A program made the translations under genes and the position numbers. The notes under the pieces were generated by a model that had not been told where the DNA came from, made no database searches, and saw nothing but the letters and a program-made list of their open reading frames with translations. This document shows positions 32,702 through 52,400 of a stretch of DNA of 64,000 nt, piece after piece. The stretch covers positions 224,001 through 288,000 of the forward strand of contig CBFIBM010000001.1 in the NCBI GenBank assembly GCA_965660855.1, written 5' to 3'. Each line of letters opens with the position of its first letter. Position 1 is the stretch's first letter. This stretch comes from an uncultured bacterium. Its GTDB lineage: Bacteria; Fidelibacterota; Marinisomatia; Marinisomatales; UBA1611.

Positions 32702-34021
32702 ATGATTGAATTCTTTAGAATATCAAGATTAATAATGTTTTTATTAATAGTGCGGTTTATCTCAGCTGCTGAGCCCTACGTAATCATTTACTTATTACCG
32801 TTTGATAATACTCAAAATGATCCTGCTTTAGAATGGATATCCCCAGGATTATCCGATATGACTAAGGAACAGATTAAAAGTATCTACGGAGTTAAAATAA
32901 AATCAAAAGAAGATTTAGAGATTATAATGAATGACAGATCTTTAATGTTGCAGCAGCCACGAGGATCAAGGAATTTACTTTTGTTGGGGAAATATAACCG
33001 AAAGCTTGATAAAGTTCATGTTACGATTCAACTTGTTGATGTAGCTAATTGGGAAGAGTTAGGAAAAACACACACTACTGAAGTATATACCAGAATACCT
33101 TCATTGAATAAAAGCGTTGGTGCATCAGTTATCCAAATGATAGAACCTTTTTTGCCCAAACCTCCAAAAACAAAAATATCTCCATTCCCAATGTATGCTA
33201 AGCCAGAATTACAAGATCAAAGAAATCCTGTGTCAACCCAAGCAGAAAAACTTGCTTCGGGCCTAGACAAACAGATAGCAGAACTAGAAGCTTCAATGGA
33301 TTATTTATTAGGTGCAAGAGAACGAAGAAAAGAAAAACCAAAAGTAGATGTTCCCAGGTTTAAATCAGGTGAATGGACAATGGATTTTGATGTTGATCGT
33401 AAGCTTAAGGACAATCCTGAAAATAATTCTAATACACAAATGCTAAGCAATGTATTAGATCAGTTGTTGACTAATCCTTATGAAGTTGAATTACAACGTC
33501 CAGAATTTGACTATCAGAAGGATGACGAATTGTACATGACAGTTAGGTTTCCTATAATATACAGGTTAAAGGATAAGATCTTAAAAGATATGTTATCTAG
33601 TCTGCCTTATACTGGGCTGCAACAAGATGGATCACTTACTGTTTTCTATTTTGACAGAACAAAGTTTAATTTTCCACAAAATCATGTGGAGTCAATAGCA
33701 AATGGTGATTTCAGAATTATCCCTGTTCTGAGGATTTTTGATGAAAATAGAAATACTTTAATCTTGGTGGCTGATACTCCAGAAAAATACTGGCATTCTA
33801 GGTCAAGCGATAAGGTTTATTACGTACCCCAACATCAATTTTCACCTCTTATTGATTTTACGGTTGGCGGTTGGTCTATTCAAGTTGCTATGGAGACTGT
33901 AGAAATTCAAGCCGTTTATGAATTTATATTACCTGTAAGTGAAATGGAATCCCTCAGTAATATTAGTTTGAAATTCATAAAAGAGAATGATTTAAGAGCT
34001 TTTCTTGATCCAATCCTTTGA
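32702..34021 (+). CDS. Secreted hypothetical protein (N-terminus resembles TolB_N/FlgO/CsgG-like fold)
   Basis: Signal peptide; LLPFDN...EWISPGLSDM pattern; coiled-coil-like segment. Confidence 0.5.
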   Translation: MIEFFRISRLIMFLLIVRFISAAEPYVIIYLLPFDNTQNDPALEWISPGLSDMTKEQIKSIYGVKIKSKEDLEIIMNDRSLMLQQPRGSRNLLLLGKYNRKLDKVHVTIQLVDVANWEELGKTHTTEVYTRIPSLNKSVGASVIQMIEPFLPKPPKTKISPFPMYAKPELQDQRNPVSTQAEKLASGLDKQIAELEASMDYLLGARERRKEKPKVDVPRFKSGEWTMDFDVDRKLKDNPENNSNTQMLSNVLDQLLTNPYEVELQRPEFDYQKDDELYMTVRFPIIYRLKDKILKDMLSSLPYTGLQQDGSLTVFYFDRTKFNFPQNHVESIANGDFRIIPVLRIFDENRNTLILVADTPEKYWHSRSSDKVYYVPQHQFSPLIDFTVGGWSIQVAMETVEIQAVYEFILPVSEMESLSNISLKFIKENDLRAFLDPIL

Positions 34022-34097
34022 AAATATAGTTGTTAAAATAAGGATTTATTACTATTTTCGGGATATATTTATTTATTCTGTAAGTGTAGGATTTTAG

Positions 34098-35231
34098 ATG
34101 AAAATACTTTTGTTAATTTTATTGTTAATGTCAAAAATTCAAGGACAGAAACTAGATGCAATTGACATTAATTTAAGAAACCTTAATGATGTCTTAGAAA
34201 CTGCACAAAGATCTTCTCAAAAAGTATTTGTTGACGATTTTACAGGCCTTTTGTGACCATACTGTCCCTCTGCGAGTTTCGCAATTTCAGAAATGTTAGA
34301 TTTATATCCAGAAACTTTGATTAGTGTCGAGTGGCACAGCTCAGGTTTTACTCCAGGAAATTCAGATTTTGATATACCAGCATATTCTACCAGGGCAGCG
34401 TTGTACAATGTAGGAGGTATTCCTCATACTCAATGGAATGGCGTTGTTTCAACTGTTGGTGGGTATCCAAATGGTAACTGGCAAGCCTTTATTGGAGAAT
34501 TTACAAATACCTATAATAGTATGGTTGGAGAAGAAACTCCATACAATATTGACATAAACGGTTACGCGGGTAATACTGTGAATTACGATGTTACGATTTC
34601 AATGGATTCTGATATGAGTAGCTCAAACCAGAAAGTTGATGTCTTCCTTGCTGAAGATAATATATGGTCTTATTGGAGCGGCGCAAGTTCATATCATAAT
34701 GCAAGATTTGTAGCAAGGGAATGGCTTTCTTCGGAGTATCTGAGTATCAGCAGTGCCGGCCAGAGTGAAACTTTTTCTGGTTCATTTGAATACAATGGAA
34801 ATTGGAATAGTGATAGCCTTTTTTTAATTGCTATTGTTCAAAACTATTCATCAAAACAAATTTATCAAGCCTCAAAAGTTAATATAAATGATATGGATCC
34901 GGATATTGATGATGATGGTATTTTGAATAATACTGATAATTGTATTGAAGATTACAATCCTCAGCAAGAAGATATTGATAACGATCAAATAGGTGATGCT
35001 TGCGATCCATGTAATAATTTAATTTATACTCTAGGCAACCCAAATGGTGATACAAATATCAATGGAGATCCCCTCATTGACATCATGGATGTCTTAACCC
35101 TTGTAGATTATCTTGCATTTGATCAAAATGAAAATATTTGCCAGGAACCAACTCTAAATATAAATCAAGATAATCATGTTAATATCGTTGATGTAATAAA
35201 TCTTGTTCAACTGATTCTTAATGGTGCATAA
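34098..35231 (+). CDS. Putative selenoprotein: signal peptide + Omp28-like thioredoxin fold (U53-P-Y-C) + TSP3 + dockerin-like domain, 377 aa
   Basis: Open frame from ATG 34098 (AGGA RBS): MKILLLILLLMSKIQGQ...KVFVDDFTGLL-TGA(34254)-PYCP, continuing in frame into track ORF 34293; hairpin 34271-34283. Confidence 0.85.
34271..34283 (+). promoter_or_regulatory. SECIS-like hairpin 1
   Basis: TGCGA-GTT-TCGCA; G-initiated loop 19 nt after TGA. Confidence 0.6.
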
Positions 35232-35733
35232 TTTCTTAATAAAACCACTATTAAAATTTGTTTTTTTTAGTTCAGTTTTCTTTTCTTTTGCTCTTGCAAA
35301 AAAAGTTCCTGATTTAAATATTAAACTTATTGATGGATCAAAGACTACAATTCTAGAGCTTGCAGAAGATGGTCCATTATTAATTGATTTTTGGGCAACT
35401 TGGTGTGTTCCATGCAAAAAAGTGATGAAACATTTAAATCAATTTCATCTAAAATATGATGATCAAAATTTTAAGGTTTTAATGATTAATACAGATAGTC
35501 CTAGGTCTTTTGGAAAAGTAAAATCATTTATAAGATCTCAAGATTATAAATTTTATGTAGGGTTAGATCCTAACCAAATTACAGCCAGAAAACTTGATGG
35601 ATTAGTTATGCCTACTCTTATTTTAGTTGATGCAGGTGGGGAAATAACTTGGAGACATCAAGGTTACTCACCAGGTGATGAAAAAGAAATTGAAAATCAG
35701 ATTGAATTATTACTAAGTAAAAATACTAAATGA
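35221..35733 (+). CDS. TlpA-family thiol:disulfide oxidoreductase
   Basis: Signal peptide, DFWATWCVPC, cis-Pro MPT. Confidence 0.9.
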   Translation: MVHNFLIKPLLKFVFFSSVFFSFALAKKVPDLNIKLIDGSKTTILELAEDGPLLIDFWATWCVPCKKVMKHLNQFHLKYDDQNFKVLMINTDSPRSFGKVKSFIRSQDYKFYVGLDPNQITARKLDGLVMPTLILVDAGGEITWRHQGYSPGDEKEIENQIELLLSKNTK

Positions 35734-37682
35734 TATCAAAATTATTTAGGCTTAGTAAGCTTATTTTTCTTTTATGTTTTTTAACAGCTCAAGACTTTAG
35801 TTATAACGCCTCTATTAATTCAAGTTTTGGAAATAGTTATGATTTTTATTCTTTTTCAGAAAATAGGATAAACATCAACTTATTTTACAATAACTTTCAA
35901 AGTTGGGTTCAATATGAATATTCAAACCCACCCGACGTAGGTTTTCCAATTAATGATATAAGAAAATTTCGATTTGAATATCAAAATAAAGCTTTAAATA
36001 TTAAACTTGGCGACATTTATGAAATTTGGGGTAGGGGTTTAGTTCTTAATCAATTCGATGATCAACTTTTAGATTTTGACAATGGAATAAGAGGACTTTT
36101 TATAAATTATGGTAAAGGTCCGTTTAGTTTAACACACATAAATGGTAATGCAAATTTATGGAGTTACGGTCTTGATTTAAGAAAACCATATTATAATGAT
36201 AAGCATAATGTTATAGCAAACAGACTCCTTTATGAAAAAGGTTCCACAGTATTAGGCTTGACACATTTGATTTCTAGTGAAGAGCATTCCAAGTTAAATT
36301 TAGATGTAGTAGATGTGGGGCATACAATTAAGGGTATTTACGGTGATTATTCTTCTAATAATTTTGATATTTTTTTAGAATATGTAGATAAGGTCTCAAT
36401 CTCTAAAAATATAGTTTCAAATAATTTTCCAAATGATACCCTCAAAACAGGGTATGGTTTATATGGTAATTTGAATTTTTACTTAGGATCTTGGGGTCTA
36501 ACTACCGAGTATAAAAATTATTCTTTTGATTCGTTTATTAGTGATAAAACTCCAGATGATTATGGAAATCAAATTCAATTTCAACAAATGCCAACTTTAG
36601 GTAAGGAGCATAATTCAACGCTACTTGGTAGACTTAGCCATTATTATAATTTTAATGATGAAAGAGGTGTACAGTATGAGTTAAATGGATCATTTATAGG
36701 ACTGTCAATTAACCTTCAATATGCTCATTTAAGTAGGAATGAACAATGGTTTTCACAAAATGGCCCGTTTTCTTGGACAAATAAGATTTTGAGATCAAAA
36801 TTACCTAGTACAAAAATTAATACTAACCCATACTATGAAAACTTCCAAGAATTAAGTGGCTATCTGTTTGAAGATAAACTCTTTTTTAAGATTGGCAGGG
36901 GAGCAAATAAAGAAGTTTTAGGAACAAATTGGTTTTTTAATGGGGTTCAAACAGACACCTCTTATAGTTTGAGTTTTGCTTATGATACAACCTATTCGCC
37001 ATATGCTCCTGATTATCCAATAATTACGGTTGATAGCCTATATGACACATCTTCTGTTAGTTATAATATAAAAGCAGAGAATTGGAGAGAGAGTCAATCT
37101 TTTACGATTCCTGTTGAATTAAATTATACTATGTCAAGTGGATACTCCTTCGGAGTTGGTTTTCAGTACCAGGAGAGAACTTTAAATGAAAAAAGAAAAG
37201 GAAATTCTCATTCATATAATGTTGGAAATTCAAAATGGAATTTAGTTAATCCAGATGATTCAGACTATAAATCTACTTTAATTATATCTCAACTCTCTAT
37301 AAATGGTAAACCTAGGAAAATCCAACATAATCGTCTATTATCATTTACTTTAAGTAAAGCGCAGAAATGGTCAGTTACTATTACACAAGATTGGACTGAT
37401 GCATATGAGGTCCAATCATCTGATCCTTATTATAATCCATTAGAGGCAATAGTATATGGTGATTTAAAATATTTTACTGGGAAAAGAAATAATGTTTCTC
37501 CTCCTTCATTTATTCAAAATAAATGGGTTTCGGCAGAAGTATCATATAACATTAATTCATCTCAAAAAGTTTCAATTTTTTATGGATCTATTCAAGGTGG
37601 CTTATTCTGTAATAATGGAATATGCAGAATTATACCTGCATTCAATGATGGTATAAAAGTTGGCTATTATTTCAGTTTATAA
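35730..37682 (+). CDS. DUF6029-like outer-membrane beta-barrel
   Basis: GDIYEIWGRGLVL, DNGIRG, EYKNY, C-terminal GGLFCNNGICRIIPAF and terminal amphipathic strand. Confidence 0.7.
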   Translation: MISKLFRLSKLIFLLCFLTAQDFSYNASINSSFGNSYDFYSFSENRININLFYNNFQSWVQYEYSNPPDVGFPINDIRKFRFEYQNKALNIKLGDIYEIWGRGLVLNQFDDQLLDFDNGIRGLFINYGKGPFSLTHINGNANLWSYGLDLRKPYYNDKHNVIANRLLYEKGSTVLGLTHLISSEEHSKLNLDVVDVGHTIKGIYGDYSSNNFDIFLEYVDKVSISKNIVSNNFPNDTLKTGYGLYGNLNFYLGSWGLTTEYKNYSFDSFISDKTPDDYGNQIQFQQMPTLGKEHNSTLLGRLSHYYNFNDERGVQYELNGSFIGLSINLQYAHLSRNEQWFSQNGPFSWTNKILRSKLPSTKINTNPYYENFQELSGYLFEDKLFFKIGRGANKEVLGTNWFFNGVQTDTSYSLSFAYDTTYSPYAPDYPIITVDSLYDTSSVSYNIKAENWRESQSFTIPVELNYTMSSGYSFGVGFQYQERTLNEKRKGNSHSYNVGNSKWNLVNPDDSDYKSTLIISQLSINGKPRKIQHNRLLSFTLSKAQKWSVTITQDWTDAYEVQSSDPYYNPLEAIVYGDLKYFTGKRNNVSPPSFIQNKWVSAEVSYNINSSQKVSIFYGSIQGGLFCNNGICRIIPAFNDGIKVGYYFSL

Positions 37683-37760
37683 AACCATTAATTGTTTCTT
37701 TTTATTAATTATCTTTTGAATTTTTCAGTTCCAAAAGTATATCGTGATATTTAAAATTAT

Positions 37761-38645
37761 GTGAAGAATTATATCTTAAGCATTCCTTTAGCAAAATTAA
37801 TTTTTATTCTATCTATTATTTTATCAAATACTATTTATCCTCAAATAGATATAGGTTCAATATCTCCTAATTTCACTGCTCCTGTATGCGCAAACGGTGA
37901 TCTCGAGTTATTCAACTTGTACCAACAAACTAATGGCAGTTTTAATGGTGGTGATTATAAAGTAGTATGGATCAATTTATTTACTTCTTGGTGACCAAGT
38001 TGCCAAGTGGAGGCTCCACTATCAGAAGAAATATGGCAAGAATATTTAAGCGGAGGGGAAGAAAAATTAGTTGTTATGGCAGCTGGGTTTGATTGGCATC
38101 AGCCTTATAGCTGTGAAGAATGGTCAACTGCATTTGGTATAACATACCTAATGGTAGATGATACAAATAATGAAGCATGGAATATTTATGGTGATGGCTA
38201 TATTCCGCATAATGTAGTGTTAGATCATAACATGCAGGTTCTATATACAAGTTCAGGATTTAACTCAAATGAAATAAAAGATGCAATCGATCTCGGCCTA
38301 TCTTATGTTCCAAGAGATTTAGATTTAGATGGAATTAATGATAACATAGATAACTGTGATGATATTTATAATCCTAATCAAGAGGATGTTGATGTAGATG
38401 GCATCGGTGATTTATGTGATAATTGCGATAACTATAATGTATTTATTTCTGGAAATACTGATGGTGGTTTAGTAAATGGAATTCCCATTTTAGATATTTT
38501 TGATGTGTTGAACCTAGTTGATATTGTTTTATTGGATGAATCTGGTACCTGTAGATCTGATATCTCAGATTTGAATTCAGATAATAATATTAATATTATT
38601 GATGTGATATTTCTTGTACAGGGGTTGTTAAATGGTGAATTTTAA
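37761..38645 (+). CDS. Putative selenoprotein: signal peptide + AhpC/TSA-TlpA-like fold (U78-P-S-C) + TSP3 + dockerin-like domain, 294 aa
   Basis: Track ORFs 37761-37994 and 38007-38645 are in frame, joined as LFTSW-TGA(37992)-PSCQVEAP; aligns with Cys paralogue IFTSWCGFCQTEA. Confidence 0.88.
38000..38039 (+). promoter_or_regulatory. SECIS-like hairpin 2
   Basis: AGTGGA-GGC-TCCACT (38006-38020), loop 17 nt after TGA; lower stem TTGCCA/TGGCAA. Confidence 0.7.
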
Positions 38646-38757
38646 ATTCAAAAACTTAGTTAAGATTTAAACAATAAAAAATATTACAATTTAACATTCA
38701 TAAATGTTGATGTTTTTAAAGATTTAGATTAGAATTTATATATATATTTCTACATTC

Positions 38758-41700
38758 ATGAATATTTTTAAAAAAATGACCTTCTTCCTTCTGTTTTTTT
38801 CCTTAATTAAAGGTCAAGGTGATTATTCATTTAAAAATATTTCAGTAGAAGATGGACTTGCTGAAAGTACTGTAAAGATAATCTATGAGTCAAAACAAGG
38901 TTTTTTATTTTTTGGAACTGAAAATGGTCTTGATATTTTTGATGGTTATAAATTTAAAAACTATCATATGGATTCATTCGATAATGAATCAATTCTTGGA
39001 AATAAAGTTTCAGCTATTTACGAATCAAGTAATAATTTGATCTGGGTAGGAAGTGAGCTAGGATTTAGTTCATTTAATCCTTCAACACAAAAATTCAAAA
39101 GACCGTCATTAAGTAATAATAATATTACAAATCCAGAAAAAATTACAGAAGATGAAAGTGGGAAAATCTGGATTAAAGAGGCTCAATCTAGCCGTTTATT
39201 TAAATATGATTTTAATAAAGATATTCTTGAATGTATTTCATGTGATCAAATGAGCATCCTTTTTAATCAAACCATAAATATTCTACACAAATCGAATAAA
39301 GGTGCTTTGTGGATTGGTACTGATAAAGGTCTTTATTTTTATGATATTAATGATAAATCTATCAGGCCGATTGAATCAAAATATTCCTTAAGCATTAATG
39401 AGCCATATTATATTACATCAATTGAAAATGGATCAGATTCCATTTTATGGATAGGAACAAAACAAGGTCTTATCAAAATTGAAGAAAATAATAAGAGTCA
39501 AATTAAGATTTTTAAGAATTCGGAGGTTGAAAATTCTATCGTTTCTAACAAGATAAATGATATTAAATGGGATAATCTTAGGAATGAGTTATGGATTTCT
39601 ACTGTGGATGGAATTTCAAAATATTCACCTGAACTAAATTCTTTTTCTAACATTCAAGTAGGTCCGTTTGCTAATAGCATAATAGAAAATGATGTTACGG
39701 ATATTTTGATTGCTGAAAAGTCTGGAACTTTATGGTTTAAAACCAGAAACCGCTTTGGAATAAATAGTTTTAAAGCAACATTCAATGAATTTGAGGGGCC
39801 GGATACTTCAATTATGCATTTTGAACATGATCCTATTGATCCATTTTCTATTGCTGACAATGATATAACAAATTTTATTGAGGATAGAGCTGGCCACGTC
39901 TGGATAGGAACACGACAAAATGGGATAAGCTTTTATTCATTTTTGAAGCCTAAATTCTCATTGCTTGAATATGATCAAGAAAATGAATGGGGCCTCAAAA
40001 GTAATAAGATTTATTCAATTACAACCGATTCTTATGGTATGATGTGGGTTGCAACAGGGTTTGGATTAGAAAATATTTCTTCGGATGGTATTAGAGATTT
40101 TGAATTTGAAAAATCTTTTATTGAATCCAACCATGTCATGGATTTAGAGTTAGTAAATGATCAATATTTATGGGCGGCAACTGAAAATGGAATTCTTAGA
40201 ATTGATGTATTATCAGAAGAAATTATTCGATTTAACACCTCTCAAAATGTTAATAAAAAAAGATTAATTTCTGATAATTTTATTAGAGACCTGCTTATAA
40301 CAAAAAATGGTTCTATTTGGGCGGGGACAAAATCAGGAATTACAATAATAGATACAGTTGATTTAAGTGCTGTCAGTTTTAGCTCAGATTTTACTGCTAG
40401 GGTATTATACCAAGACGAAAGTGAAAATATATGGATAGGAACAGATTATAATGGATTATATCAAATACCATATGAAATTATTTCTGATCTAAAAAAAGAA
40501 GATATTTTTGAAGTAGAGGGTCATGTTTTTGACTCAGAGTTTTCTGATGGTCTATCATCTTCACAAATAACCTCTATAACTCAAGATACGACTGGTGTTT
40601 TATGGGTTGGTACAGCTAGTGGTTTAAATAAGTATATTGAAAGTGAAGATACCTTCTATCATTATTTCATGAAAGATGGTCTACCTAGTAACTATATTAC
40701 GGGTGTTATTGTAGATCAAAGTAATAACCTGTGGATAAGCTCTAAGAACGGTATTTCTTTCTTTAATCAGAAAGACTCTTCTTTTATAAATTATGGGGTT
40801 TCCGATGGAATAGGGAATATTGATTTTCATCAACATTCTTTTGAAAAAAGTATTGATGGAAACATATATTTTGGTGGGCCAAAAGGAATAACTAAAGTAA
40901 ATCCCTCAAATTTACAATATAATGAATACAAACCTCCTTGTTCAATTCTACGCATTAAAAAAACACTTTATGATGGATCTATTACTGAAGTTTTTCCTCA
41001 AAAAAGTTCGAAACTAGAAATTCAAAAGATTAATATAAATCATAAAGTAAAATCATTCTCAATCGATTTTGTTGCTCTGAATTATCATAAAACTATAAAG
41101 AATGAATATAGATATAAACTTCAACCTTTTGATAGGAATTGGGTAGAATCGGGGAATATTAAATTTGCATCTTACAATAATTTAGGTAGAGGAGAGTATA
41201 CCTTTTTTGTGCAAGGATCTAACGATGATGGATTATGGAGTCAGTCTGCTGTTTTAGATTTTAAATTTATTCCTCATCCTCTTTTAAGTTATGGTGCTTT
41301 TGGAGTCTATCTTGCACTAATTATATTTGGTGTATACTGGCTAGTTAAACAAAGAATATTAAAACAGCAATCTGAGGCTGATGAAAAGAGAAGAGCCGAA
41401 GAATTAGAGCAAGCTCGGGAATTCCAGATGTCACTAATACCTCAAAATCCTCCTTCTATCAGCGGATTTGAATTTGCTTTGCATATGAAAACATCTACGG
41501 AGGTTGGTGGTGATTATTATGATTTTTTTCCTCAAAAAAATAATGTTCTTTATGTAGTTTGTGGTGACGCCACTGGGCACGGTTTAAATGCTGGTATGAT
41601 GGTTTCAATTACAAAAGCAGGATTATTCGGATCAGACTTTAGTAATCCAGGTATTACAACTACTAGGTTAAATCAAACAATAAAAGCTATTGATCTTGGA

Positions 41701-42105
41701 ACAACAAGGATGTCTTTGAATATGGCTAAGTTTGAAAATGAATCCTTTGAGTTTACATCAGCTGGTATGCCTCCTGCATATTTATTTCGTGGTGAAACAA
41801 AGGTTGTAGAGGAAATTTTAATTCCTGGTTTGCCTCTGGGGTCTATGAAAAATGCTACATTTGATTCTGAGATATTTGAATTTAAAATAGATGATGCGTT
41901 AATCTTAATTTCAGATGGACTTCCTGAATGTGTTGACCATAAAGATGAAATGTTAGATTATGATGCAGTAAAGAACTGTATTGAAAAAAATGGGCATAAA
42001 TCAGCAAATGGCATTAAAGATGCCTTGATAAAATTGGGTGATGACTGGATGGACGGTCTAATGAATGATGATGATATAACATTGGTAATTATAAAGAGGA
42101 AATAG
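38758..42105 (+). CDS. Membrane sensor phosphatase: two-component-regulator beta-propellers + Y_Y_Y + TM + SpoIIE/PP2C domain
   Basis: Repeated DxxGxLWIGT, YRYKL...ASYNNL..GEYTF, TM, EVGGDYYDF, GDATGHG, SDGLPE, DDITLV. Confidence 0.88.
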   Translation: MNIFKKMTFFLLFFSLIKGQGDYSFKNISVEDGLAESTVKIIYESKQGFLFFGTENGLDIFDGYKFKNYHMDSFDNESILGNKVSAIYESSNNLIWVGSELGFSSFNPSTQKFKRPSLSNNNITNPEKITEDESGKIWIKEAQSSRLFKYDFNKDILECISCDQMSILFNQTINILHKSNKGALWIGTDKGLYFYDINDKSIRPIESKYSLSINEPYYITSIENGSDSILWIGTKQGLIKIEENNKSQIKIFKNSEVENSIVSNKINDIKWDNLRNELWISTVDGISKYSPELNSFSNIQVGPFANSIIENDVTDILIAEKSGTLWFKTRNRFGINSFKATFNEFEGPDTSIMHFEHDPIDPFSIADNDITNFIEDRAGHVWIGTRQNGISFYSFLKPKFSLLEYDQENEWGLKSNKIYSITTDSYGMMWVATGFGLENISSDGIRDFEFEKSFIESNHVMDLELVNDQYLWAATENGILRIDVLSEEIIRFNTSQNVNKKRLISDNFIRDLLITKNGSIWAGTKSGITIIDTVDLSAVSFSSDFTARVLYQDESENIWIGTDYNGLYQIPYEIISDLKKEDIFEVEGHVFDSEFSDGLSSSQITSITQDTTGVLWVGTASGLNKYIESEDTFYHYFMKDGLPSNYITGVIVDQSNNLWISSKNGISFFNQKDSSFINYGVSDGIGNIDFHQHSFEKSIDGNIYFGGPKGITKVNPSNLQYNEYKPPCSILRIKKTLYDGSITEVFPQKSSKLEIQKININHKVKSFSIDFVALNYHKTIKNEYRYKLQPFDRNWVESGNIKFASYNNLGRGEYTFFVQGSNDDGLWSQSAVLDFKFIPHPLLSYGAFGVYLALIIFGVYWLVKQRILKQQSEADEKRRAEELEQAREFQMSLIPQNPPSISGFEFALHMKTSTEVGGDYYDFFPQKNNVLYVVCGDATGHGLNAGMMVSITKAGLFGSDFSNPGITTTRLNQTIKAIDLGTTRMSLNMAKFENESFEFTSAGMPPAYLFRGETKVVEEILIPGLPLGSMKNATFDSEIFEFKIDDALILISDGLPECVDHKDEMLDYDAVKNCIEKNGHKSANGIKDALIKLGDDWMDGLMNDDDITLVIIKRK

Positions 42106-42116
42106 GTTAAACTCTC

Positions 42117-42683
42117 ATGATAAAAAATACAATTAGAATAATCTATTTGCTTATGTTTCTTTCACTTGGATATTCTCAAGAAAAAATACCAAACTTGAGA
42201 CTTAAAATGTTGAATGGAAAATATGCAAAAGTAAATGATTTTTTAAAAGATGGACCAATGATTATAGATTTTTGGGCTACTTGGTGTGAGCCATGTAAGA
42301 AACAGATGAAATATCTTAATATATTTAATAATCATTTTAAGGAAACTGGATTTAAAGTACTTGCTGTTAACACTGATACACCTAAAAGTATGAGTAAGGT
42401 TAAATCTTATGTCAGAACAAAAAAGTTTGAGTTTGACGTTGCAGTGGACCCGAATAGTCAGGTTAAAAAGAAAATGAAGGTTTTGCAAATGCCTACAACT
42501 ATTTTAGTTGATAAAACTGGACAAATAGTTTTTAGACATCAAGGATATTTACCTGGCGATGAACATGATATTCTTCAAGCTATTTATGGTTTAATGGATA
42601 AAAACAATACTAGTTATGAAAAACTTGATTTGAATAAGAACAATAAAAAACAAATTAAATCCGGTGCTGAAGTTGATTTTTAA
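42117..42683 (+). CDS. TlpA-family thiol:disulfide oxidoreductase (paralogue of 35221)
   Basis: DGPMIIDFWATWCEPC, MPT, RHQGY. Confidence 0.9.
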   Translation: MIKNTIRIIYLLMFLSLGYSQEKIPNLRLKMLNGKYAKVNDFLKDGPMIIDFWATWCEPCKKQMKYLNIFNNHFKETGFKVLAVNTDTPKSMSKVKSYVRTKKFEFDVAVDPNSQVKKKMKVLQMPTTILVDKTGQIVFRHQGYLPGDEHDILQAIYGLMDKNNTSYEKLDLNKNNKKQIKSGAEVDF

Positions 42684-44946
42684 TAAGCAAATAATTGTAT
42701 CATTCATATTGATACTTAGTAATTCAGATTTATTTTCCCAAATAACAGCTGGTGGGAACTCTATTCTAAAATTTGGCGAGAGTAAAAATGAATTTCACTA
42801 TTCAGAGGTTTTGCTGAATATGAACTTATCAAATGATTATTTGGAGACTTGGTTTCAATTCGAATACAGCAAACCACCTGAGATTGGGATGAGTATTAAT
42901 GGTCTGAGAAAATTTAGGATTGACTATTCTGATGGCCCTTTCGAATTATCTGTTGGAGATATATATAAAATTTGGGGGAGGGGGTTAATATTGAACCAGT
43001 TTGATGATCAGGATGTAAATCTTGATAATGGTTATAGAGGATTAAGTTTCAGTATAATAAAAGATAACTATACCATTGATTTAATATCTGGAATTTCAAA
43101 TATACATAGAATTAGTCAAGATTACTGGCAAAATATAGATCAAGAATCAAGAAAGCCAAATCATTTATCAAAACATTCTATGTTTGGTAGTGATTTAGAG
43201 TTTTTTCAAGGACCTTTTTCTCTAGGTTTATCCTTTCTTCAAAGTAGAGAGAATCATCCCATCAATAATCCGATCACGATGATGGCAGATAGTATTAATG
43301 TAATTCATCGAATAAATGGTTTAAGAGCCGGATATGAAGGCGGGCGTCTCGCCTCCTACTTAGAATTATCTGGAAAAAATACGCTATTATCTCAATCCGA
43401 AAGTCAAATATATAAGGAAAATTTTAATCCTTATAATGGCTTCAGTCTTTTTGGAAATATTAATTATTATTTTCAAAGTCAGCTTCTAGACGGATGGTCA
43501 TTAACAATGGAGTATAAAAACTACAATACAACAAAATTAAATACATCAGATAAAGACAATTTTGTTAAAAATTATGATATGAATTTAATTTTTACTCAAC
43601 CCCCGACTGTTTTAAGGGAACATAGCAGTGTATTTTTAGCTAGACTTATTCCTCAGGTAAATTTCAGCGATGAAGTAGGTTATCAATTTTCTCTTGTTGG
43701 TCCTATTATGGGGATAGGGTATTTTACTCTCAACTATCAAGCCGCAAGTAGAACAAACTTATGGGGTAAAACATACCCAGATACTGTAAATGCTATATTA
43801 TCTACTAAATGGGAAAGTGATAGTGCAGTTACCGTATTGCCATTCAGTGAAAAATCCGGACTGCCATACAATGAACTTTATCTTGAAATGGAAGGTTACA
43901 TAAAAAATATTAGGTATCAATTTGGCTTTGGTATCACAAACAAAATACCTGAATATCATTCGTCGTATAATAGTGGAAAGAATGGTGTCTGGGATAATGG
44001 TGAAGCGTTTGATGATTTAAATGGCAATAATATTTATGATATTGGAGAAAATTTTACTGATCTTTACAGTATAGTAAATGAAAAAATTGATAATAAAACT
44101 GTTACAGCCATTACAATACCTTCTCTTCTAAATTATAATTTAGGAAATGGGTGGAGTATTGATTTAAAATATGAATTTCAAAAGATTAAAAGTGGTACAA
44201 AATATTATAATTCATTGTCCTCTGATGAAGTATTCTATGATAGTAATGGAAATGGTGTTTGGGATATTGCAGAGTTATTTGAAGATAGTAATGGTGATGG
44301 TATTTGGAACCAAGCTGAAGAGACATGGTATGATTTATGGCAAAGTGGTTTAATACCCGATGAACAATTATACTACTATGATACTGACGGCGATGGTTTA
44401 TTTTCGGAGGGAGAATATTTTACTGATGCTGATGGAAATGGCATGTGGAATTCATCAGAAAACTTAATTGATGAAGATGGTGATGGAATATGGGATGATT
44501 CAGAGTATTTGGAGGATCTAAATAATGATGGAGTCTGGACAAAAAGTGGAGTGTATGAAGATAGGTATCAATCTAATTTTTATTCAAATGATTCAAAAAG
44601 TGGGTTGAGTATTCCTGAAGATTTTCAAAATAATCATCTGATATCACTCGGAATAGGAAAATCGCCTTATTGGTCACTATCTTTAACGGTTGAATCAAGT
44701 TCAACCTATGAATATGGTCCATTAAAAAATAGTGTTGTTAATCCTCTAGAGAGTTTCTTAGGTAATATTATTGATTTAAATAATAAGTGGATTGCTTTAG
44801 AATTTATGGTGAATATAAATTCAAATACTAGGCTCGATTTAATGTACGGTACGCAAAGGGGAGGGATTATTTGCAGTAATGGAATTTGTAGGTATGTTGA
44901 ACCTTTCGATGATGGATTTAAATTAGCGTTATCAACAGTATTTTAA
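42664..44946 (+). CDS. DUF6029-like outer-membrane barrel with inserted Ca-binding-like DxNGDGxWD repeats
   Basis: GDIYKIWGRGLILNQFDDQ, C-terminal QRGGIICSNGICRYVEPF...TVF. Confidence 0.7.
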   Translation: MLKLIFNKQIIVSFILILSNSDLFSQITAGGNSILKFGESKNEFHYSEVLLNMNLSNDYLETWFQFEYSKPPEIGMSINGLRKFRIDYSDGPFELSVGDIYKIWGRGLILNQFDDQDVNLDNGYRGLSFSIIKDNYTIDLISGISNIHRISQDYWQNIDQESRKPNHLSKHSMFGSDLEFFQGPFSLGLSFLQSRENHPINNPITMMADSINVIHRINGLRAGYEGGRLASYLELSGKNTLLSQSESQIYKENFNPYNGFSLFGNINYYFQSQLLDGWSLTMEYKNYNTTKLNTSDKDNFVKNYDMNLIFTQPPTVLREHSSVFLARLIPQVNFSDEVGYQFSLVGPIMGIGYFTLNYQAASRTNLWGKTYPDTVNAILSTKWESDSAVTVLPFSEKSGLPYNELYLEMEGYIKNIRYQFGFGITNKIPEYHSSYNSGKNGVWDNGEAFDDLNGNNIYDIGENFTDLYSIVNEKIDNKTVTAITIPSLLNYNLGNGWSIDLKYEFQKIKSGTKYYNSLSSDEVFYDSNGNGVWDIAELFEDSNGDGIWNQAEETWYDLWQSGLIPDEQLYYYDTDGDGLFSEGEYFTDADGNGMWNSSENLIDEDGDGIWDDSEYLEDLNNDGVWTKSGVYEDRYQSNFYSNDSKSGLSIPEDFQNNHLISLGIGKSPYWSLSLTVESSSTYEYGPLKNSVVNPLESFLGNIIDLNNKWIALEFMVNINSNTRLDLMYGTQRGGIICSNGICRYVEPFDDGFKLALSTVF

Positions 44947-45015
44947 TCTAGCTTTTAATGAAAAATATCAATAAATTGAAAATAATTACATAACTTCAAT
45001 TAAAACAAAACTTAC

Positions 45016-45909
45016 ATGAAAAAATTCATTTTAAAGTTTTTTATTTTATTTTCTATAACATTTCCCTCATTTGTTATATGTCAGGGTCAAATTATACAAG
45101 ATTTTTCCTACCCAATTTGTGCTAATGGTGATGGTGAAACAGTTTTAAATTTTTATGAATCATTCAACGGATCAGTAAACAATTGTGAGTATAAAGTAGT
45201 TCTTGCTACACTTTTCACCTCCTGGTGACCATCCTGTATGACGGAGGCTCCGGTTCTAGAAGAAATATTTAACACCTACAAAGATCAAGGATTAGAAGTT
45301 GTTGCATTTGGAGCCGACTGGTATCCTGATGGACCCTATACTTGTGAAGGGTGGGATCAACAATTTAATCTTTCTTACCCAATACTTGATTTTGAGACAG
45401 GATTAGAAAATTGGTATTGGGAGTCAGCTCCGTATGATTTATACCAGCCCGAGTTAGGTTGGGGGTTACCTTTTAATGTAATAATAAATCATGAGATGGA
45501 AGTTTTATGGGGTGCAGCAGCCAACTTTGAGGGTGATGTAATGGCTGAGGCTATAGGTGTTATTGAATCAGCTCTCCAAGCGTTGAATGAAGAATTTCCC
45601 GATGGTCCAGGGGATGATGATGGAGATGGAATAGCAAATGGTTGTGATCCTTGTCCAGAATCTCATTTACACCATCCTGGAAATTTTGATTTTTCTCAGG
45701 TTTATTCACATTTTGATAATGGTGCAGTCTTTGTACCATCTGTAGATATTTTTGATTTAATACTATTTTCAGATTATATAATGGATGGTGGCTACCTAAC
45801 TGATTGTATCTTAGAGGCGCACGATATTACCGGGGATGGTTATGTCAATCCTTTCGATGTTATAGCATTAGCTCAATTAATTCTTGGAAATGATTGGGGT
45901 TTAAATTAG
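45016..45909 (+). CDS. Putative selenoprotein: signal peptide + AhpC/TSA-TlpA-like fold (U71-P-S-C) + TSP3-like + dockerin-like domain, 297 aa
   Basis: Track ORFs 45016-45228 and 45238-45909 are in frame, joined as LFTSW-TGA(45226)-PSCMTEAP. Confidence 0.88.
45242..45252 (+). promoter_or_regulatory. SECIS-like hairpin 3
   Basis: CGGA-GGC-TCCG, loop 17 nt after TGA; same GGAGGCTCC core as hairpin 2. Confidence 0.65.
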
Positions 45910-45931
45910 CCTGATTATTTTCTTCTTATAA

Positions 45932-46855
45932 ATGAAATTATTTTATCATATTTTTCAGAAGAGTATTATTATTTTTGTTTTAATTTATACTTCTACCACT
46001 TCAGAAATGCAAGGTCAGGTAGCTGTAGGTGACACTATAAACCCTTCTCAATTAAGTTTACCAATTTGCGCTAATCAAGAACCCTTTGGCCCTTCAGAGC
46101 AATTTTTTGATATTTCGATTTATAATAACCCAGATCAAGATTCACAATCAAAAGTAATTTTACTTTCTATTTTTACATCATGGTGCGGATTTTGTCAAAC
46201 TGAAGCTACACACTTACAAGATTTACATACTGAATTTGCCGATGATGGATTGTTAGTTGTTTCAGCTGGAGGAGATTGGGGTTTTCCATATGATTGTGAG
46301 GGTTGGTCTAATGAATTTGATTTAAGTTATCCAATATTAGATTTTATGAATCCCTTTAATCCTAATTGGGGAGAAGCGCCATTAATGACCTATTTAGGAG
46401 TAGCTGCAATACCCTTTAATGTAATTATAGATCATAGGAACATAGTCTCAAATATTATAATAGGATATAATGAGGAAATATTGAACCTAGCTATTGAAGA
46501 TGCTCTTGAAGCAATGATTCAAGATAGTGATGGTGATGGAATTAATTCTGAAGCAGATAACTGTCCATCAATATTCAACCCAGGTCAATCTGATTTTGAC
46601 GGTGATGGCATAGGAGATGTCTGCGATGCTTGTGATAATCTTAATATATTTGTTAACGGAAATCTTAATGGTACATTAAATCTTGATCAAGAACCAACCA
46701 TTGATATTCTAGACTTATTGTTACTGGCCGACTTCCTTGAGGGATTACCAGATCAAAATATCTGTCATGAGGCTGCCTCTGATATTAATGAGGATTCTAA
46801 TATAAATTTACTTGATGTATTTTCACTTGCCTATCAAATTACTGGGCAAAATTAA
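45932..46855 (+). CDS. Secreted thioredoxin-fold protein (CGFC) + TSP3 + dockerin-like; Cys paralogue
   Basis: IFTSWCGFC; DSDGDGINSEADNC; IDILDLL and DINEDSNINLLDV. Confidence 0.85.
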   Translation: MKLFYHIFQKSIIIFVLIYTSTTSEMQGQVAVGDTINPSQLSLPICANQEPFGPSEQFFDISIYNNPDQDSQSKVILLSIFTSWCGFCQTEATHLQDLHTEFADDGLLVVSAGGDWGFPYDCEGWSNEFDLSYPILDFMNPFNPNWGEAPLMTYLGVAAIPFNVIIDHRNIVSNIIIGYNEEILNLAIEDALEAMIQDSDGDGINSEADNCPSIFNPGQSDFDGDGIGDVCDACDNLNIFVNGNLNGTLNLDQEPTIDILDLLLLADFLEGLPDQNICHEAASDINEDSNINLLDVFSLAYQITGQN

Positions 46856-47001
46856 AATAGGATAAAGGCCTTGAGCAAAGTTATACTTTTATCGTTGGTT
46901 ATTTATTATCAAATTTTGAACCTATATAAAAAGGTATCTATTTTGTATAATCAGGTTCTATTTACAAAATTTTAACAAAAATTATTTTAAAAAGATCAGT
47001 T

Positions 47002-47916
47002 TTGTTAAAAAAAAATTTTAAAAAAATAAATTACCTCAAAGTATTTACAATACTTTTATTGCAATCATTATTATATAGTCAAATTGCAATTGGTGATACT
47101 GTCTTTAATCTGCAATTACCAATATGTGCTAATTCTGATCCTGATATTCACGAACAGCAATATTTTGATATAAATGATTATAATGGTTTTCCCGAAAGTA
47201 CTATCAGCCCAAGGGTAATTCTTCTTGCAATCTTTACTTCATGGTGTGCGTATTGTCAAACTGAAGCGTTCCTTTTAGAAGATTTACATGAGGAGTATAT
47301 TGATGATGGATTATTGGTCCTTTCTGCTGGTGGTGATTGGGGCTTCCCATATGATTGTAGTGGTTGGGCAAATTCATTTAATTTAACTCATCCAATATTA
47401 AATTTTATGACAACTAATGTGGAAAGTTGGGAAGATGCTCAATTGATAAACTATTTGGGAGTTGGTATTGTACCACATGCTGTTGTAATTGATCATCGAA
47501 ATATTCTTTCAAACACCATTGTGGGTTATAATCCTAATGCTTTGAATCAAGCTGTTGAAAGTGCGCTTGAAACAATGGCTCAAGACCTTGATGGTGATGG
47601 AGTTTTATTTGATGATGATAATTGTCCTTCAATTCATAACCCAGAACAAATAGATATTGACAATGATAACCTTGGTGATGAATGTGATTTATGTGATAAT
47701 CTTAATAATTTTGTAATTGGCAATCTAAATGGTACACTAGATCAATTTCAGCAAGCAACCATTGATATTTTTGATTTATTGTTATTAACTGATTTTTTAG
47801 ATAATTCTTACGAGAATAATGTATGCTCTAACGCTGTATCCGATATTAATGGTGATAATTCTATAGATCTAATTGACGTATTTACGCTTGCTTATATTAT
47901 TTCAGAACAAAATTAA
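47002..47916 (+). CDS. Secreted thioredoxin-fold protein (CAYC) + TSP3 + dockerin-like; Cys paralogue
   Basis: IFTSWCAYC; DLDGDGVLFDDDNC; DINGDNSIDLIDV; close paralogue of 45932. Confidence 0.85.
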   Translation: MLKKNFKKINYLKVFTILLLQSLLYSQIAIGDTVFNLQLPICANSDPDIHEQQYFDINDYNGFPESTISPRVILLAIFTSWCAYCQTEAFLLEDLHEEYIDDGLLVLSAGGDWGFPYDCSGWANSFNLTHPILNFMTTNVESWEDAQLINYLGVGIVPHAVVIDHRNILSNTIVGYNPNALNQAVESALETMAQDLDGDGVLFDDDNCPSIHNPEQIDIDNDNLGDECDLCDNLNNFVIGNLNGTLDQFQQATIDIFDLLLLTDFLDNSYENNVCSNAVSDINGDNSIDLIDVFTLAYIISEQN

Positions 47917-47974
47917 AAAAAAATAAATTTTTTGAAAGGAAGTCTGTAATTTCAATCCTATTCAAAGAGTATAT

Positions 47975-48048
47975 GCGCCCGTAGCTCAACTGGATAGAGT
48001 GTCTGGCTACGGACCAGAAGGTTGGGGGTTCGAATCCTCCCGGGCGTA
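47975..48048 (+). tRNA. tRNA-Arg(ACG)
   Basis: GCGCCCG/CGGGCGT acceptor, anticodon arm TCTGG-CTACGGA-CCAGA, GTTCGAATC; CCA not encoded. Confidence 0.95.
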
Positions 48049-49413: not shown

Positions 49414-52400
49414 ATGTATAAATCATATAATTCTAAGTATTTATCTGTCGTATTATTCCTGTTTTTTCAGTCGGGTTTGATATTTGGACAAGCTATTGAT
49501 TTTTATCCTGCTGGTCAAGTAGCAGATGGTGATAATATTTACAATATTAATTCAACAGTTGCAACTAATGGTCCTTTTTCTGGGTCAAATGCCGGTGGAG
49601 TATGGGTAACGGGATCAAGTCTTGAATACACTTCATGGGATGTTCAAATACAATTTGATGGTGGGGCGTTTACTACTATAAACGGTGATGGTTCAAATGA
49701 TGATAATGCCTCTGCTAATGGGCAAAGTTTTGGAAGTGCAACTGTTCGCCCAACTGCTGATGGTGATCTTAATATCTGGTTTAGTCATGCAGAGATTGCG
49801 GCCACCTCAGGTTATCCTGGAACTGTTGATGGGATTAACATCTCATTTAGAATAAGAAAAGTAAGTGATGGTAGTACATTACCAACTTCGCCACAAGATT
49901 ATGCCTTTGATTTAGTTGCTCCGACTCTTACTTCTGCCAGTATAGCTTCAGATAACGATAATACAAGTTGGGCTAAGTCTGGCGACAATATTACCATAAC
50001 GTTAACTGCACCAAGTGGAAGTGACGGAGAAAATTTAGGTACCTCAGATCAATGGTCAACATCAATTCAGGGTCTTGGTGCTTCTGTATCAGGTTCAGGG
50101 CTTGTTTGGACTGTCTCAGCAACTGTAAGTAGTCATCCGGAAGGGACTGTTTATTTTCAAATAACATATTACGATGCATATGAAAACCCAGGAACTGTAC
50201 TAACCGCTGTAGTGGGAAATACTTCACAAGTAATAATAGATAAGACTCCCCCTAATATTTCAGCTACAATTCTATCAGATGATAATACAAATAATACACA
50301 ATATTTAGCGACTACTGGTGACGACGTTACTTTAACAATTACTGCAACTGATGATGATGGAGGTGCAGAGATTATTCAAGTTCCAACCGTAACTATTGAC
50401 GGAAATACTCCTACTGGAAGTAATCTTTCTGTTCCAGCTAGTTCCTACACTGCTTACAGAACGATGCAAGCAGGTGATACGCAAGGAGATGTTGGCTTTG
50501 CAATTACTGGTATAAAAGATAGAGCCGGTAATACGGCTACCAATGTAACTGCTGTTACATCTGGTAGTAATGTTCGGTTTGATTCAGCTGTTCCAACAAT
50601 AAATTCTCTCACAGTTGCATCAAATAACGCCATTGCGAGTAATAAAGCTACCATAGGAGATGTTATAACTATTTCCTTTGCATCAACTGGTAATGAATCT
50701 TTACAAACTCCTGTTGTTACTATCGATGGTGAAGATGCGCTTGAGCAACAAAATGGGAATGCTTATACTTGGACAGCAACAAAAACAATGGATGCGGAAG
50801 ATACGGAGCGACTTACGCAGTTCTCATTGAATTTTAAAGATTTAGCTGCTAACAGTGGTACCGCTTTAGATCATGGTGATATTACAGCTGGTACACTTGT
50901 TGATTTTGACGCAACGCCTCCAACAATTAATTCGGAAACTGCTTCCACCACAAATTCCTACGATAACACGCTAGCAATTTTAAATCAGGTCATCTCTATT
51001 GATATTGTAAGTGCTGAAGAACTCTATAGTATTAAGGATGTTCTTATCGCAGGGAAAGCGGTAGCTGATCAAGTGACTGCAGCAACAAATGTAACAGATT
51101 GGACTATAAATCATGTAGTGGATGGTACGGAAGCGGATGGGTATGTTGGTTATTCTTACACAGCTGTTGATTTAGCTGGAAATGAGACAAATGTAGTTAA
51201 ATCAAGTAGTAGTATTCGTATCGATAACTCAAAACCAGTGCTAAATACAGTTACCATTATTTCAAATAATACAAATACTGCTTACGCAAAAATTGGTGAT
51301 GTTGCTACGATAAATATTGTTGCAAATGAGGCTCTCCGCATTAGCCCTGTTGTTTCGATTCAAGGGAGAACTGCGACTATCGCTGCTGCAGGAGATGGCA
51401 TCACCTTTACAGCAACTCATACCTTTGATAATACTGATACTGAAGGTCTCGTAGCTTTTCAAATTGATTTTGAAAATGCTTTTGGACTTGCTGGAGACAG
51501 AATTATTGATGATGGTACAGGTTCCACAACTAATAATGGCGCAACCGTAAGGTTTGATAGAACAGCTCCTACATTAAACCCTGTTACTGTAACATCAAAT
51601 AATAATAATTCTTCATATGCGAAAGTAGGTGATATTGTTACGTTATCTTTTACTTCTATTGAAGCGATTCAAGATCCACCAACAGTCGTTTTCCTAAGCA
51701 CACCGGGAGATAATCGAGCTGGGACTGTTTCTGGAAGTGGTACAAGTTGGAATGCAACATATACTATGCAAAACTCTGATACAGAGGGAGATGTTGATTT
51801 TTACATTGATTTTGTTGATATCGCGGGGAATACGGGTGTAAGAGAAACAAGTCTTTCATCTGGAAGTGAAATTATTTTTGATCGTGATATACCCGAACTC
51901 ACAACTGTAGATATATCCTCGAGTAATGCAAATCCAGCTCTATCAAAAGTTGGTGATGTTATAACCTTAGCTATTACTTCAGATGAAGATATTCAGATAC
52001 CGACTGTTACTATTGCAGGAACCACAATAGCTAGTGAAAATATTACCGGTAATGATGGTGAAAGAAACTTCACAGCTACATATACGATGCAAAGCTCAGA
52101 CAATACAACAGCTGCTATTGGTTTTACAATTGATTTTGCAGATCTTGCAAATAATTTAGGAACTCAAAAAACAGCTATAGTAAATGATGGAGATGGACTT
52201 GGAGTTGGTTTTGACAAACAGGCGCCAGGTTTAAATATTGTTACTATACTTTCGAATAATGATAATAGAGCAGGAACAGGAAATAAAACTGGTTTAGCAA
52301 TAGTAAATGATATCATCACTTTAAACTTTGAGTCAGACGAAGATTTAAAAACTGGAGTGACTCCGGCTGTCCTTATTGCGGGAAATGCTGCAACGGTTGT

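Follow-up and report, generated by a model that had tools for sequence, protein, structure and literature searches.

The DNA analysed here, which we refer to as the window, is a stretch of 64,000 nucleotides (G000:C1:224001-288000) from the genome of an uncultured bacterium of the Fidelibacterota, a genome of 2.09 Mb in 81 contigs. It holds three genes on the forward strand, each of which is a single open frame once one in-frame TGA is read as selenocysteine (Sec, or U), and our subject is the small RNA hairpin that follows each of these TGAs. Gene 1 (34098-35231; 377 aa with its TGA read as U) consists of a signal-like N-terminus, a U-P-Y-C motif (...FTGLL-U-PYC-PSASFA...), an Omp28-like region and a thrombospondin-type-3 (TSP3)/dockerin-like tail; its Pfam match to Omp28, at 27.3 bits, is weak and under the cut-off of that family. 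Gene 2 (37761-38645; 294 aa) has a thioredoxin fold of the Redoxin/AhpC-TSA type, followed by a TSP3/dockerin-like tail, and carries its U in a W-U-P-S-C motif (...LFTSW-U-PSC-QVEAP...). It matches Redoxin with 31.0 bits, above the cut-off of 26.6. Gene 3 (45016-45909; 297 aa), a paralogue of gene 2 with the same motif (...LFTSW-U-PSC-MTEAP...), matches AhpC-TSA with 26.2 bits (cut-off 26) and Thioredoxin with 23.6 bits (cut-off 23.5), and in both genes the U stands at the first Cys of CxxC. Two further paralogues on the same strand have Cys instead: Cys paralogue 1 (45932-46855; W-C-G-F-C-Q-T-E-A-T, Cys codon at 46184-46186) and Cys paralogue 2 (47002-47916; W-C-A-Y-C-Q-T-E-A-F, Cys codon at 47245-47247). 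Genes 2 and 3 and both Cys paralogues fall in one Pfam group (Redoxin/AhpC-TSA/Thioredoxin), with TSP3 and dockerin-like tails.

The three TGAs lie at 34254-34256 (site 1), 37992-37994 (site 2) and 45226-45228 (site 3). Hairpin 1 (34271-34283; UGCGA-GUU-UCGCA) has 5 bp and its loop G is 19 nt past the UGA; hairpin 2 (38006-38020; AGUGGA-GGC-UCCACU), spelled by the codons of Q-V-E-A-P-L, has 6 bp and its loop G at 17 nt; hairpin 3 (45242-45252; CGGA-GGC-UCCG) has 4 bp and its loop G likewise at 17 nt. These spacings count the nucleotides lying between the UGA and the first loop base; the first base of the hairpin itself is 14, 11 and 13 nt past the UGA at sites 1, 2 and 3. We consider it very probable, at roughly 90%, that all three hairpins are bacterial selenocysteine insertion sequences (bSECIS), placed within the coding sequences of three secreted selenoproteins with a thioredoxin fold. 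Directly observed are the alignment of TGA with Cys, the Sec machinery of the genome, the fixed distance from TGA to hairpin, and covariation together with frozen synonymous sites in the TGA forms only.

A first-pass annotation of this DNA had already described hairpins after these TGAs with spacings of +19, +17 and +17, and the sequence reads exactly as it claimed. Its remark that the hairpins are built from GC-rich codons in AT-rich DNA is borne out as well, the hairpins having 54-82% G+C and the region about 30%. It had also pointed to a CCA after each TGA. This triplet does directly follow the TGA at all three sites, but it is merely the Pro codon of the U-P-x-C motif, and in the homologues described below the codon after TGA is CCA in 24/57 and 36/59 rows, being otherwise GGN, CCY, ACA, AGY etc. 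Its further claim, that the hairpin is present in the TGA copies only, stands for the two Cys paralogues of the window: these read ACTGAAGCTACA (46199-46210) and ACTGAAGCGTTC (47260-47271), retain the E-A but not the Pro after it, and have no hairpin there. The minimum free energy (MFE) of the interval from +9 to +40 is -4.9, -6.7 and -3.8 kcal/mol after the three TGAs versus 0.0 and -1.9 kcal/mol after the Cys codons of paralogues 1 and 2. Outside the window the claim does not hold throughout, as will be seen from four Cys forms below.

The same genome encodes SelB (303.4 bits; cut-off 242.25), SelA (494.2; cut-off 267.9) and SelD (388.9; cut-off 125), the selD gene itself holding one in-frame TGA, as well as one tRNA-SeC with anticodon tca. 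SelB, encoded on contig C16, has 625 aa and ends in a winged helix (SelB-wing_3, PF09107, 63.5 bits). When compared with paralogues and orthologues, the TGAs at the three sites of the window fall on the first Cys of CxxC, and judging from this we take them to be selenocysteine codons, with actual Sec incorporation extrapolated from the E. coli / Moorella mechanism. One may consider instead that they are real stops, in split or decaying genes, or that they encode another amino acid under a variant genetic code, and standard ORF (open reading frame) calling does cut each gene at its TGA. We regard this as extremely improbable: TGA keeps its column in 57 and 59 distinct rows of homologues, with conserved sequence on either side of it, it aligns with a catalytic Cys, and the full Sec machinery is present. 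Elsewhere in the genome TGA is an ordinary stop, ending 229 of the 1291 ORFs of at least 200 aa (TAA ends 850 and TAG 212).

To compare sites 2 and 3 with their homologues we used the thioredoxin-fold part of gene 2 as the query against 61 genomes (the genome itself and others from its genus, family and order). It was matched in 54 of the 61, and most of the matches contain one TGA. All W/Y-U-x-x-C sites whose flanks are open were taken in (57 rows, 55 distinct); the 55 distinct rows, site 3 and a paralogue from the same genome at C1:124118 make up an alignment, A1, of 57 rows and 48 gapless columns. Two exact duplicates were left out, as were four W-TGA-xx-C matches (L019, L024, L025 and, on the opposite strand, L028) that lay in other frames and had no family context around them. 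L067-L069 and L072-L074 contributed no row, since no family site turned up in them, and the single match in L076 is a U-x-x-U, which the W/Y-U-x-x-C filter does not admit.

In the helix of A1 (columns 15-20 with 24-29) 86.3% of 342 cells are paired, versus 71.8% in shuffles, and the covariation score is 0.366 versus 0.143; none of 500 shuffles reached either value. Six slid registers gave 21-48% paired cells. The outer pairs vary most, with A-U 19, G-U 13, U-A 8 and G-C 2 at pair 15-29 (15 rows unpaired) and G-C 15, U-A 15, C-G 4 and G-U 4 at pair 16-28 (19 unpaired). Pair 17-27 is C-G 40, U-A 8, G-C 3 and A-U 1 (5 unpaired), followed inward by 18-26 (G-C 53, U-A 2, U-G 1; 1 unpaired), 19-25 (G-C 50, G-U 4, U-A 1; 2 unpaired) and 20-24 (A-U 51, G-U 1; 5 unpaired). 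The loop G (column 21) is near-invariant, being found in at least 90% of the 57 rows. Most of the unpaired cells belong, by eye, to sub-families that have another hairpin in another register, namely UPVCAPEFS (CCGGA-GUU-UUCGG), UIPCQTESQ, UGTCQGHVS and UPYCEADAP. RNAalifold keeps just three pairs of A1 (17-27, 18-26 and 19-25).

For site 1 the N-terminal 201 aa of gene 1 served as the query. It was matched in 33 of the 61 genomes, many of which hold several paralogues (up to 7 matches per genome), and nearly all matches have one TGA. After 3 duplicates were dropped from the 62 U rows found, 59 distinct rows remained (alignment A2), all with TGA at the position of Sec codon 1, where the Cys forms L142 and L145 have TGC. 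Five loci that the filter missed (L139-L141, L143 and L144), U-P-T-C paralogues with the hairpin CGUGA-GUU-UCGCG, are outside the A2 counts. In the A2 helix (columns 18-22 with 26-30) 91.2% of 295 cells are paired versus 82.8% in shuffles, and 27 cells are changed on both sides versus 7.9; again 0 of 500 shuffles reached these values. Pair 18-30 is C-G 33, U-A 18, U-G 3 and A-U 1 (4 of 59 rows unpaired), pair 21-27 is G-C 44 and A-U 8 (7 unpaired), and the loop G (column 23) is invariant. The 7-8 unpaired rows are distant, order-level members (x-A-R-A/S-G), in which, by eye, the register is shifted and the hairpin is a different one, either GCCC-GGGCC-GGGY or GCCC-GGUCU-GGGC.

For hairpins that lie inside codons of a conserved peptide, one may also consider that they are by-products of the conserved amino acids and of the codons preferred locally, and have no role as RNA. 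The GGA/UCC and GCG/CGC cores do come from first and second positions of the conserved Glu-Ala-Pro and Ala-Ser-Phe-Ala codons, single-sequence folds are no better than shuffles (see below), and the 9-mer GGAGGCTCC occurs at C3:45076 as plain G-E-A-P codons without a Sec codon. On the other side stand the synonymous sites, which are frozen or covarying in the TGA forms only. In A1 the Glu codon in the hairpin is GAG in 51/51 rows, versus GAA 41 and GAG 7 for the Glu five codons on (n=48), and GAA makes up 76.6% of Glu codons in the genome of the window. The Ala codon is GCT in 46 rows and GCC in 2, in a genome where GCA accounts for 45.5% of Ala; the Pro codon is CCG 33, CCA 8, CCT 3 and CCC 3 (n=47), CCG accounting for 6.7% of Pro. 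The codon before Glu has G as its third base in 53/57 rows (TCG, ACG, GCG, GTG, GGG, CCG), and TCG, ACG, GCG and GTG are each 4-9% of their families in the genome. Moreover, the wobble base of the Pro codon and the middle base of the codon before Glu covary (GTG+CCA, NCG+CCG, GGG+CCC). ACG precedes GAG in 12/57 rows, and those of them with CCG make the 4-bp core of hairpin 3.

Site 1 behaves in the same manner. In A2 the Ser codon is AGT in 52/52 rows (21.7% of Ser codons in the genome), Phe is TTC in 44/52 (14.7%) and Ala is GCG in 36 rows (7.7%); the U forms have GCG+TTC in 36 rows and GCA+TTT in 8, and never GCA+TTC or GCG+TTT. The stem is broken in the Cys forms L145 (GCA+TTC) and L142 (GGA+TTT). 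Among the relatives of genes 2 and 3, the Cys orthologues L029 (GAT GAA GCC CCA) and L066 (GAT GAG GCC CCT) retain E-A-P and the hairpin is gone, i.e. the same peptide is written there with GAA or GAG and GCC. Given this, and given that the codons used (CCG, NCG, TTC, GCG) are each 4-15% of their family in the genome, it is most unlikely that amino acid conservation and codon choice by themselves produced the hairpins. In the family as a whole the mean MFE of the +9 to +40 interval is -7.59 kcal/mol for 56 U forms versus -2.72 kcal/mol for 9 Cys forms (Mann-Whitney p 2.2e-5).

Paired cells count sequences and not events, and we therefore built a tree of the flanking protein (FastTree, with the ten hairpin-encoding residues masked) in order to count independent changes. 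On the A1 tree, where the closest relatives of gene 3 are L058-L060, the state of pair 17-27 changed at least 9 times and that of pair 16-28 at least 16 times, and in 4 of 4 independent pairs of rows that differ at column 17 (U/C) column 27 differs matchingly (A/G; sign test p 0.125). For pair 18-30 of A2 there are 6 independent pairs on supported branches, of which 4-5 change in the same way, none in the opposite way and 1-2 not at all; pair 21-27 offers a single independent pair. The three pairs together give 9-10 independent compensating changes and 0 opposite ones, and 9/9 corresponds to a two-sided sign test of about 0.004 by our own arithmetic. The alignments thus far point to a hairpin structure that is kept by selection, via compensatory changes.

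The same comparison with Cys codons can be made within the genome. A scan for in-frame TGAs with coding flanks yielded 12 candidate Sec sites: the three of the window, the paralogue at C1:124118 (GCGGA-GGC-UCCGC), two TlpA-like proteins, a UGTC protein, a UTWC thioredoxin-like protein, a C-G-U protein, two Prx/BCP proteins and SelD. The hairpins of the two Prx/BCP proteins (GGAUUC-CGUGAU-GAAUUC and GGACUC-CGGGAU-GAGUUC) are one compensatory pair apart. Over +9 to +40 the mean MFE of the 12 sites is -5.56 kcal/mol, versus -2.41 kcal/mol for 3112 in-frame Cys codons of long ORFs (Mann-Whitney p 4.6e-6) and -1.40 kcal/mol for 188 TGA stops (p 7.4e-8). A descriptor that asks for a hairpin with at least 4 bp in its stem, 3-7 nt in its loop and an early loop G matched 9/12 Sec sites, 152/3117 Cys sites and 3/189 TGA stops. 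Still, 13%, 4.9% and 24% of the Cys sites fold at least as well as sites 1, 2 and 3 of the window, and therefore no single site proves anything. The first-pass annotation had staked its reading on covariation in orthologues and on hairpins being rarer after Cys codons. Both expectations were borne out, by compensating pairs in the two families, whose pairing 0/500 shuffles match, and by the energy difference seen genome-wide as well as within the family.

A number of observations weigh against a SECIS function of these hairpins. The independent events are few (4/4, 4-5/6 and 1/1, with p of 0.125, 0.06-0.125 and 1 in single sign tests). The three innermost pairs are almost invariant because they fall on first and second positions of the conserved Glu, Ala and Pro codons, and the wobble positions and two outer pairs alone are informative. 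When the A2 register is slid by -2 the covariation score is 0.327, versus 0.294 for the real register; this slid register is not a possible structure, since its loop would be 1 nt. Some Cys forms fold well: L029 reaches -7.0 kcal/mol through another stem, one of 7 bp, L113 holds a distant Cys paralogue that reaches -9.8 kcal/mol, and L070 and L071 retain, by eye, most of the CUCAA-GUC-UUGAG hairpin of their U-form relatives. These are the four loci for which the claim of a hairpin in TGA copies only does not hold. The 12 sites of the genome include paralogues, and the descriptor was written after the sites had been seen.

The folding of single sequences adds to these points. The 60-nt stretches after the TGAs fold to -7.3, -12.1 and -6.6 kcal/mol (sites 1, 2 and 3), with z-scores against dinucleotide shuffles of -0.37, -1.36 and +0.77, none of them significant, nor was any for the stretches after the Cys codons, and the 45-nt stretches after the TGAs fold to -6.5, -6.7 and -4.8 kcal/mol, all weaker than the published filter of -7.5 kcal/mol. 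Taken alone the hairpins have -3.9, -5.7 and -2.2 kcal/mol; hairpin 3, the weakest, is outside the MFE fold of both the 60-nt and the 45-nt stretch. The value of -7.5 kcal/mol is the filter of a prediction program, and its outcome depends on the length folded (45 versus 60 nt): with 60 nt, site 2 clears it, site 1 lies at the limit and site 3 does not reach it. The folding of one sequence alone cannot decide whether a hairpin functions; the comparison with homologues and with Cys codons exceeds chance.

The proposed mode of action, in its SelB binding, ribosome geometry and Sec incorporation, is taken over by inference from the established mechanism of E. coli and Moorella. With the UGA in the ribosomal A site, the hairpin would start 11-14 nt further on and would therefore lie where the mRNA enters. 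The C-terminal winged-helix domain of SelB, carrying Sec-tRNA(Sec), would bind its apical loop (A-GGC-U or A-GUU-U), and SelB, competing with release factor 2, would bring selenocysteine to the UGA. The signal would be written into codons of a conserved peptide, which is x-E-A-P for genes 2 and 3 and S-A-S-F-A for gene 1, such that first and second codon positions supply most of the stem and wobble positions are tuned to complete it. For genes 2 and 3 the tuning would consist of a G that ends the preceding codon, GAG for Glu, GCU for Ala, and a third base of Pro that matches the second base of the codon before Glu.

Another possibility is that SelB plays no part and that the hairpins, as unspecific structures downstream of the UGA, hold up the ribosome or make termination there less efficient, with read-through as the result. 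They are indeed very small, with 4-6 bp and no more than -2.2 to -5.7 kcal/mol alone, yet stems as weak as these make poor roadblocks. A roadblock also needs no sequence rule, whereas all 14 candidate Sec sites of the genome have, by eye, a G[G|U] as the first bases of a small loop that starts 16-22 nt past the UGA. Since the genome, besides, retains a SelB with its mRNA-binding winged helix, we give this possibility very little credence and prefer insertion by SelB.

In the minimal SECIS of E. coli fdhF, SelB reportedly needs a short upper stem-loop with GG or GU in the loop, about 11 nt past the UGA, as Liu et al. are said to have found in 1998. The hairpins of the window resemble that element in where they start (14, 11 and 13 nt past the UGA). 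Unlike it they have shorter stems, no bulged U and a loop of 3 nt (5 if the A-U opens), and their family has no conserved lower stem, RNAalifold keeping 3 pairs. A lower stem, CUGUC...GACAG, made from the Cys-Gln and Thr-Glu codons around the core, is by eye confined to one sub-clade (U forms L013, L015, L017-L019 and L026), and none that is conserved was found in the genes of the window. The Cys orthologue L029 retains a 7-bp stem, CUGUCAG/CUGACAG, and has lost the core hairpin; this stem may be a relic of a Sec ancestor, or may have arisen by chance.

The bSECIS model of Zhang and Gladyshev (2005), as summarised in a review (PMC13188914), has a loop of 3-9 nt, a stem of 4-16 bp, a G in the first two loop positions, mostly as N1-G-[G|U]-N-N2 with N1 and N2 paired, a spacing of 16-37 nt and an MFE of -7.5 kcal/mol or lower. 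The three hairpins of the window agree with it in three of these four published criteria, i.e. loop and stem size (loops of 3 nt, stems of 5, 6 and 4 bp), the G[G|U] start of the loop, and spacing (19, 17 and 17 nt); they differ in their 45-nt folds, which are weaker than the energy filter. Their loops, A-GGC-U and A-GUU-U, are literal instances of N1-G-[G|U]-N-N2 closed by A-U. The fit to the bacterial SECIS model suggested in the first-pass annotation is in this sense confirmed. The lineage-specific consensus that it proposed is not: the loops fit the general bacterial consensus and therefore define no new one. A covariance model built from A1, run over the whole genome with E up to 10, returned only its three training sites, and it is therefore a family model and not a general SECIS detector. 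A search of Rfam over 33500-48000, with E up to 1, gave 0 matches.

The protein families, too, have been described. In the ocean-metagenome study of Zhang and Gladyshev (2008, PMC2398784), GOS_C is a family of 74 selenoprotein reads with a Trx-like fold and UxxC, and supplement file 4 gives, under 'Hypothetical protein GOS_C', the block ...FVDDFTGLNUPYCPSASFAISEMLD.... Gene 1 shares with it, compared by eye, a near-identical block, ...FVDDFTGL.UPYCPSASFAISEMLD.YPETLISVEWHSS..., by which we assign gene 1 to the GOS_C family. The same source ascribes to the new families SECIS-like elements of the bacterial type, whose apical loop holds a conserved G, and the legend of its Fig. 7 names a GOS_C read among the drawings of predicted bacterial SECIS. 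Supplement file 3 contains a Prx-like 1 block (...LFTSWUPSCQVEAPQTE...) and a Prx-like 3 block (...FTSWUGSCQVEAPQTEE..., ...WFASYUGLCQAEAP...), and genes 2 and 3 have the motif of these UxxC families, to which we assigned them by motif, by eye. Both protein families were already in the 2008 catalogue of ocean-metagenome selenoproteins. In the accessible parts of the literature on bSECIS and selenoproteins, PMC2398784 included, we found no covariation study of these particular elements.

The observation is thus correct but already known, an ordinary example of a known mechanism; since mechanism, consensus and protein families are all in print, its novelty is low, and the knowledge of the mechanism and of these families is left unchanged. 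What it adds is to show cleanly, with Cys orthologues serving as natural controls, how wobble positions are tuned, in elements weaker than the usual energy filter. The same peptide motif comes with or without the hairpin according to whether UGA or UGY stands upstream, which makes for an unusually clean natural control. Three genes that standard gene callers cut in two are also confirmed as whole selenoprotein genes, as far as sequence can tell. Predictors of SECIS elements that apply an energy threshold may miss elements as small as these in A+T-rich marine genomes, and wobble covariation in alignments can rescue them.

A bolder proposal, which we offer tentatively and at clearly less than even odds, is that SelB of this lineage works with a truly minimal SECIS: a G+C-rich stem of 3-6 bp and an A-G-K-Y-U loop 16-19 nt past the UGA, with only -2 to -6 kcal/mol and arising almost wholly from the tuning of four wobble bases in existing peptide motifs (x-E-A-P, A-S-F-A). 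If so, a few changes, most of them synonymous, would be enough for a switch from Cys to Sec, which would help explain the expansion of Sec forms in secreted redox families (up to 7 matches per genome), and the filter of -7.5 kcal/mol would under-call selenoproteins in A+T-rich ocean bacteria.

Within the homologues of genes 2 and 3 some forms depart from the common pattern. The U-G-T-C forms L062 and L063 have, by eye, a U-specific hairpin (UGCC-AGG-GGCA) just 9 nt past the UGA, and their sub-family has a second hairpin, the CUCAA-GUC-UUGAG already mentioned, about 24 nt past it, which is largely retained in the Cys forms L070 and L071. Locus L076 (G059:C230, minus strand, offset 302 of the reverse complement), which belongs to the same order but to a different family, reads ...LQSGT-U-D-G-U-AGIAPQVEE..., with two in-frame TGAs three codons apart, and is possibly a U-x-x-U redox motif that replaces U-x-x-C.

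Codon-usage scoring was tried as a finder of further selenoproteins and rejected, as it did not separate real genes from antisense shadows; an overlap filter and a descriptor scan replaced it. The scan of the genome gave 42 matches, made up of 9 of the 12 sites, 2 new plausible ones (SelW-like, with C-G-M-U, and ArsC-like) and 31 others. The SelW-like candidate, with the hairpin CUUCCA-GUU-UGGAAG, adjoins a Prx/BCP selenoprotein with T-P-G-U (C6:59416 and C6:59769, both on the minus strand); adjoining Prx/SelW pairs are mentioned in PMC2398784. The other, at C15:4736 on the minus strand, is a short ORF, MKNIIIYHNPR-U-KKSRGAVQLL, with a 7-bp hairpin (GAGGAGC-CGUGCA-GCUCCUU), and looks like an ArsC-type selenoprotein. 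The 9-mer GGAGGCTCC has 6 copies in the genome (about 1.1 expected), 3 of which follow a TGA of the family. The copy at C3:45076 was considered as a Sec site and rejected: a TGA lies 21 nt upstream, but that frame is full of stops, and the 9-mer encodes the G-E-A-P of an ordinary protein in another frame.

The region from 34098 to 47916 is laid out as two alike modules, each with a TlpA-like CxxC redoxin (35221-35733; 42117-42683), a DUF6029 protein (35730-37682; 42664-44946) and dockerin-tailed UxxC/CxxC thioredoxin-fold proteins. Between the modules lies a gene for an 1115-aa protein (38758-42105) in which Reg_prop, Y_Y_Y and SpoIIE/PP2C domains occur; fusions of Prx to phosphatase domains of the PP2C type are noted in the ocean-metagenome paper (PMC2398784). 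Upstream of gene 1, the gene at 32702-34021 also ends in TGA, with just four further sense codons before the next stop (34022-34036), and because these are so few this TGA probably serves as a true stop rather than as a Sec codon. Downstream of the modules, at 49414-62157, is a 4247-aa ORF of many repeated domains, the C-terminal end of which we take, by eye, to resemble a type-IX-secretion sorting domain.

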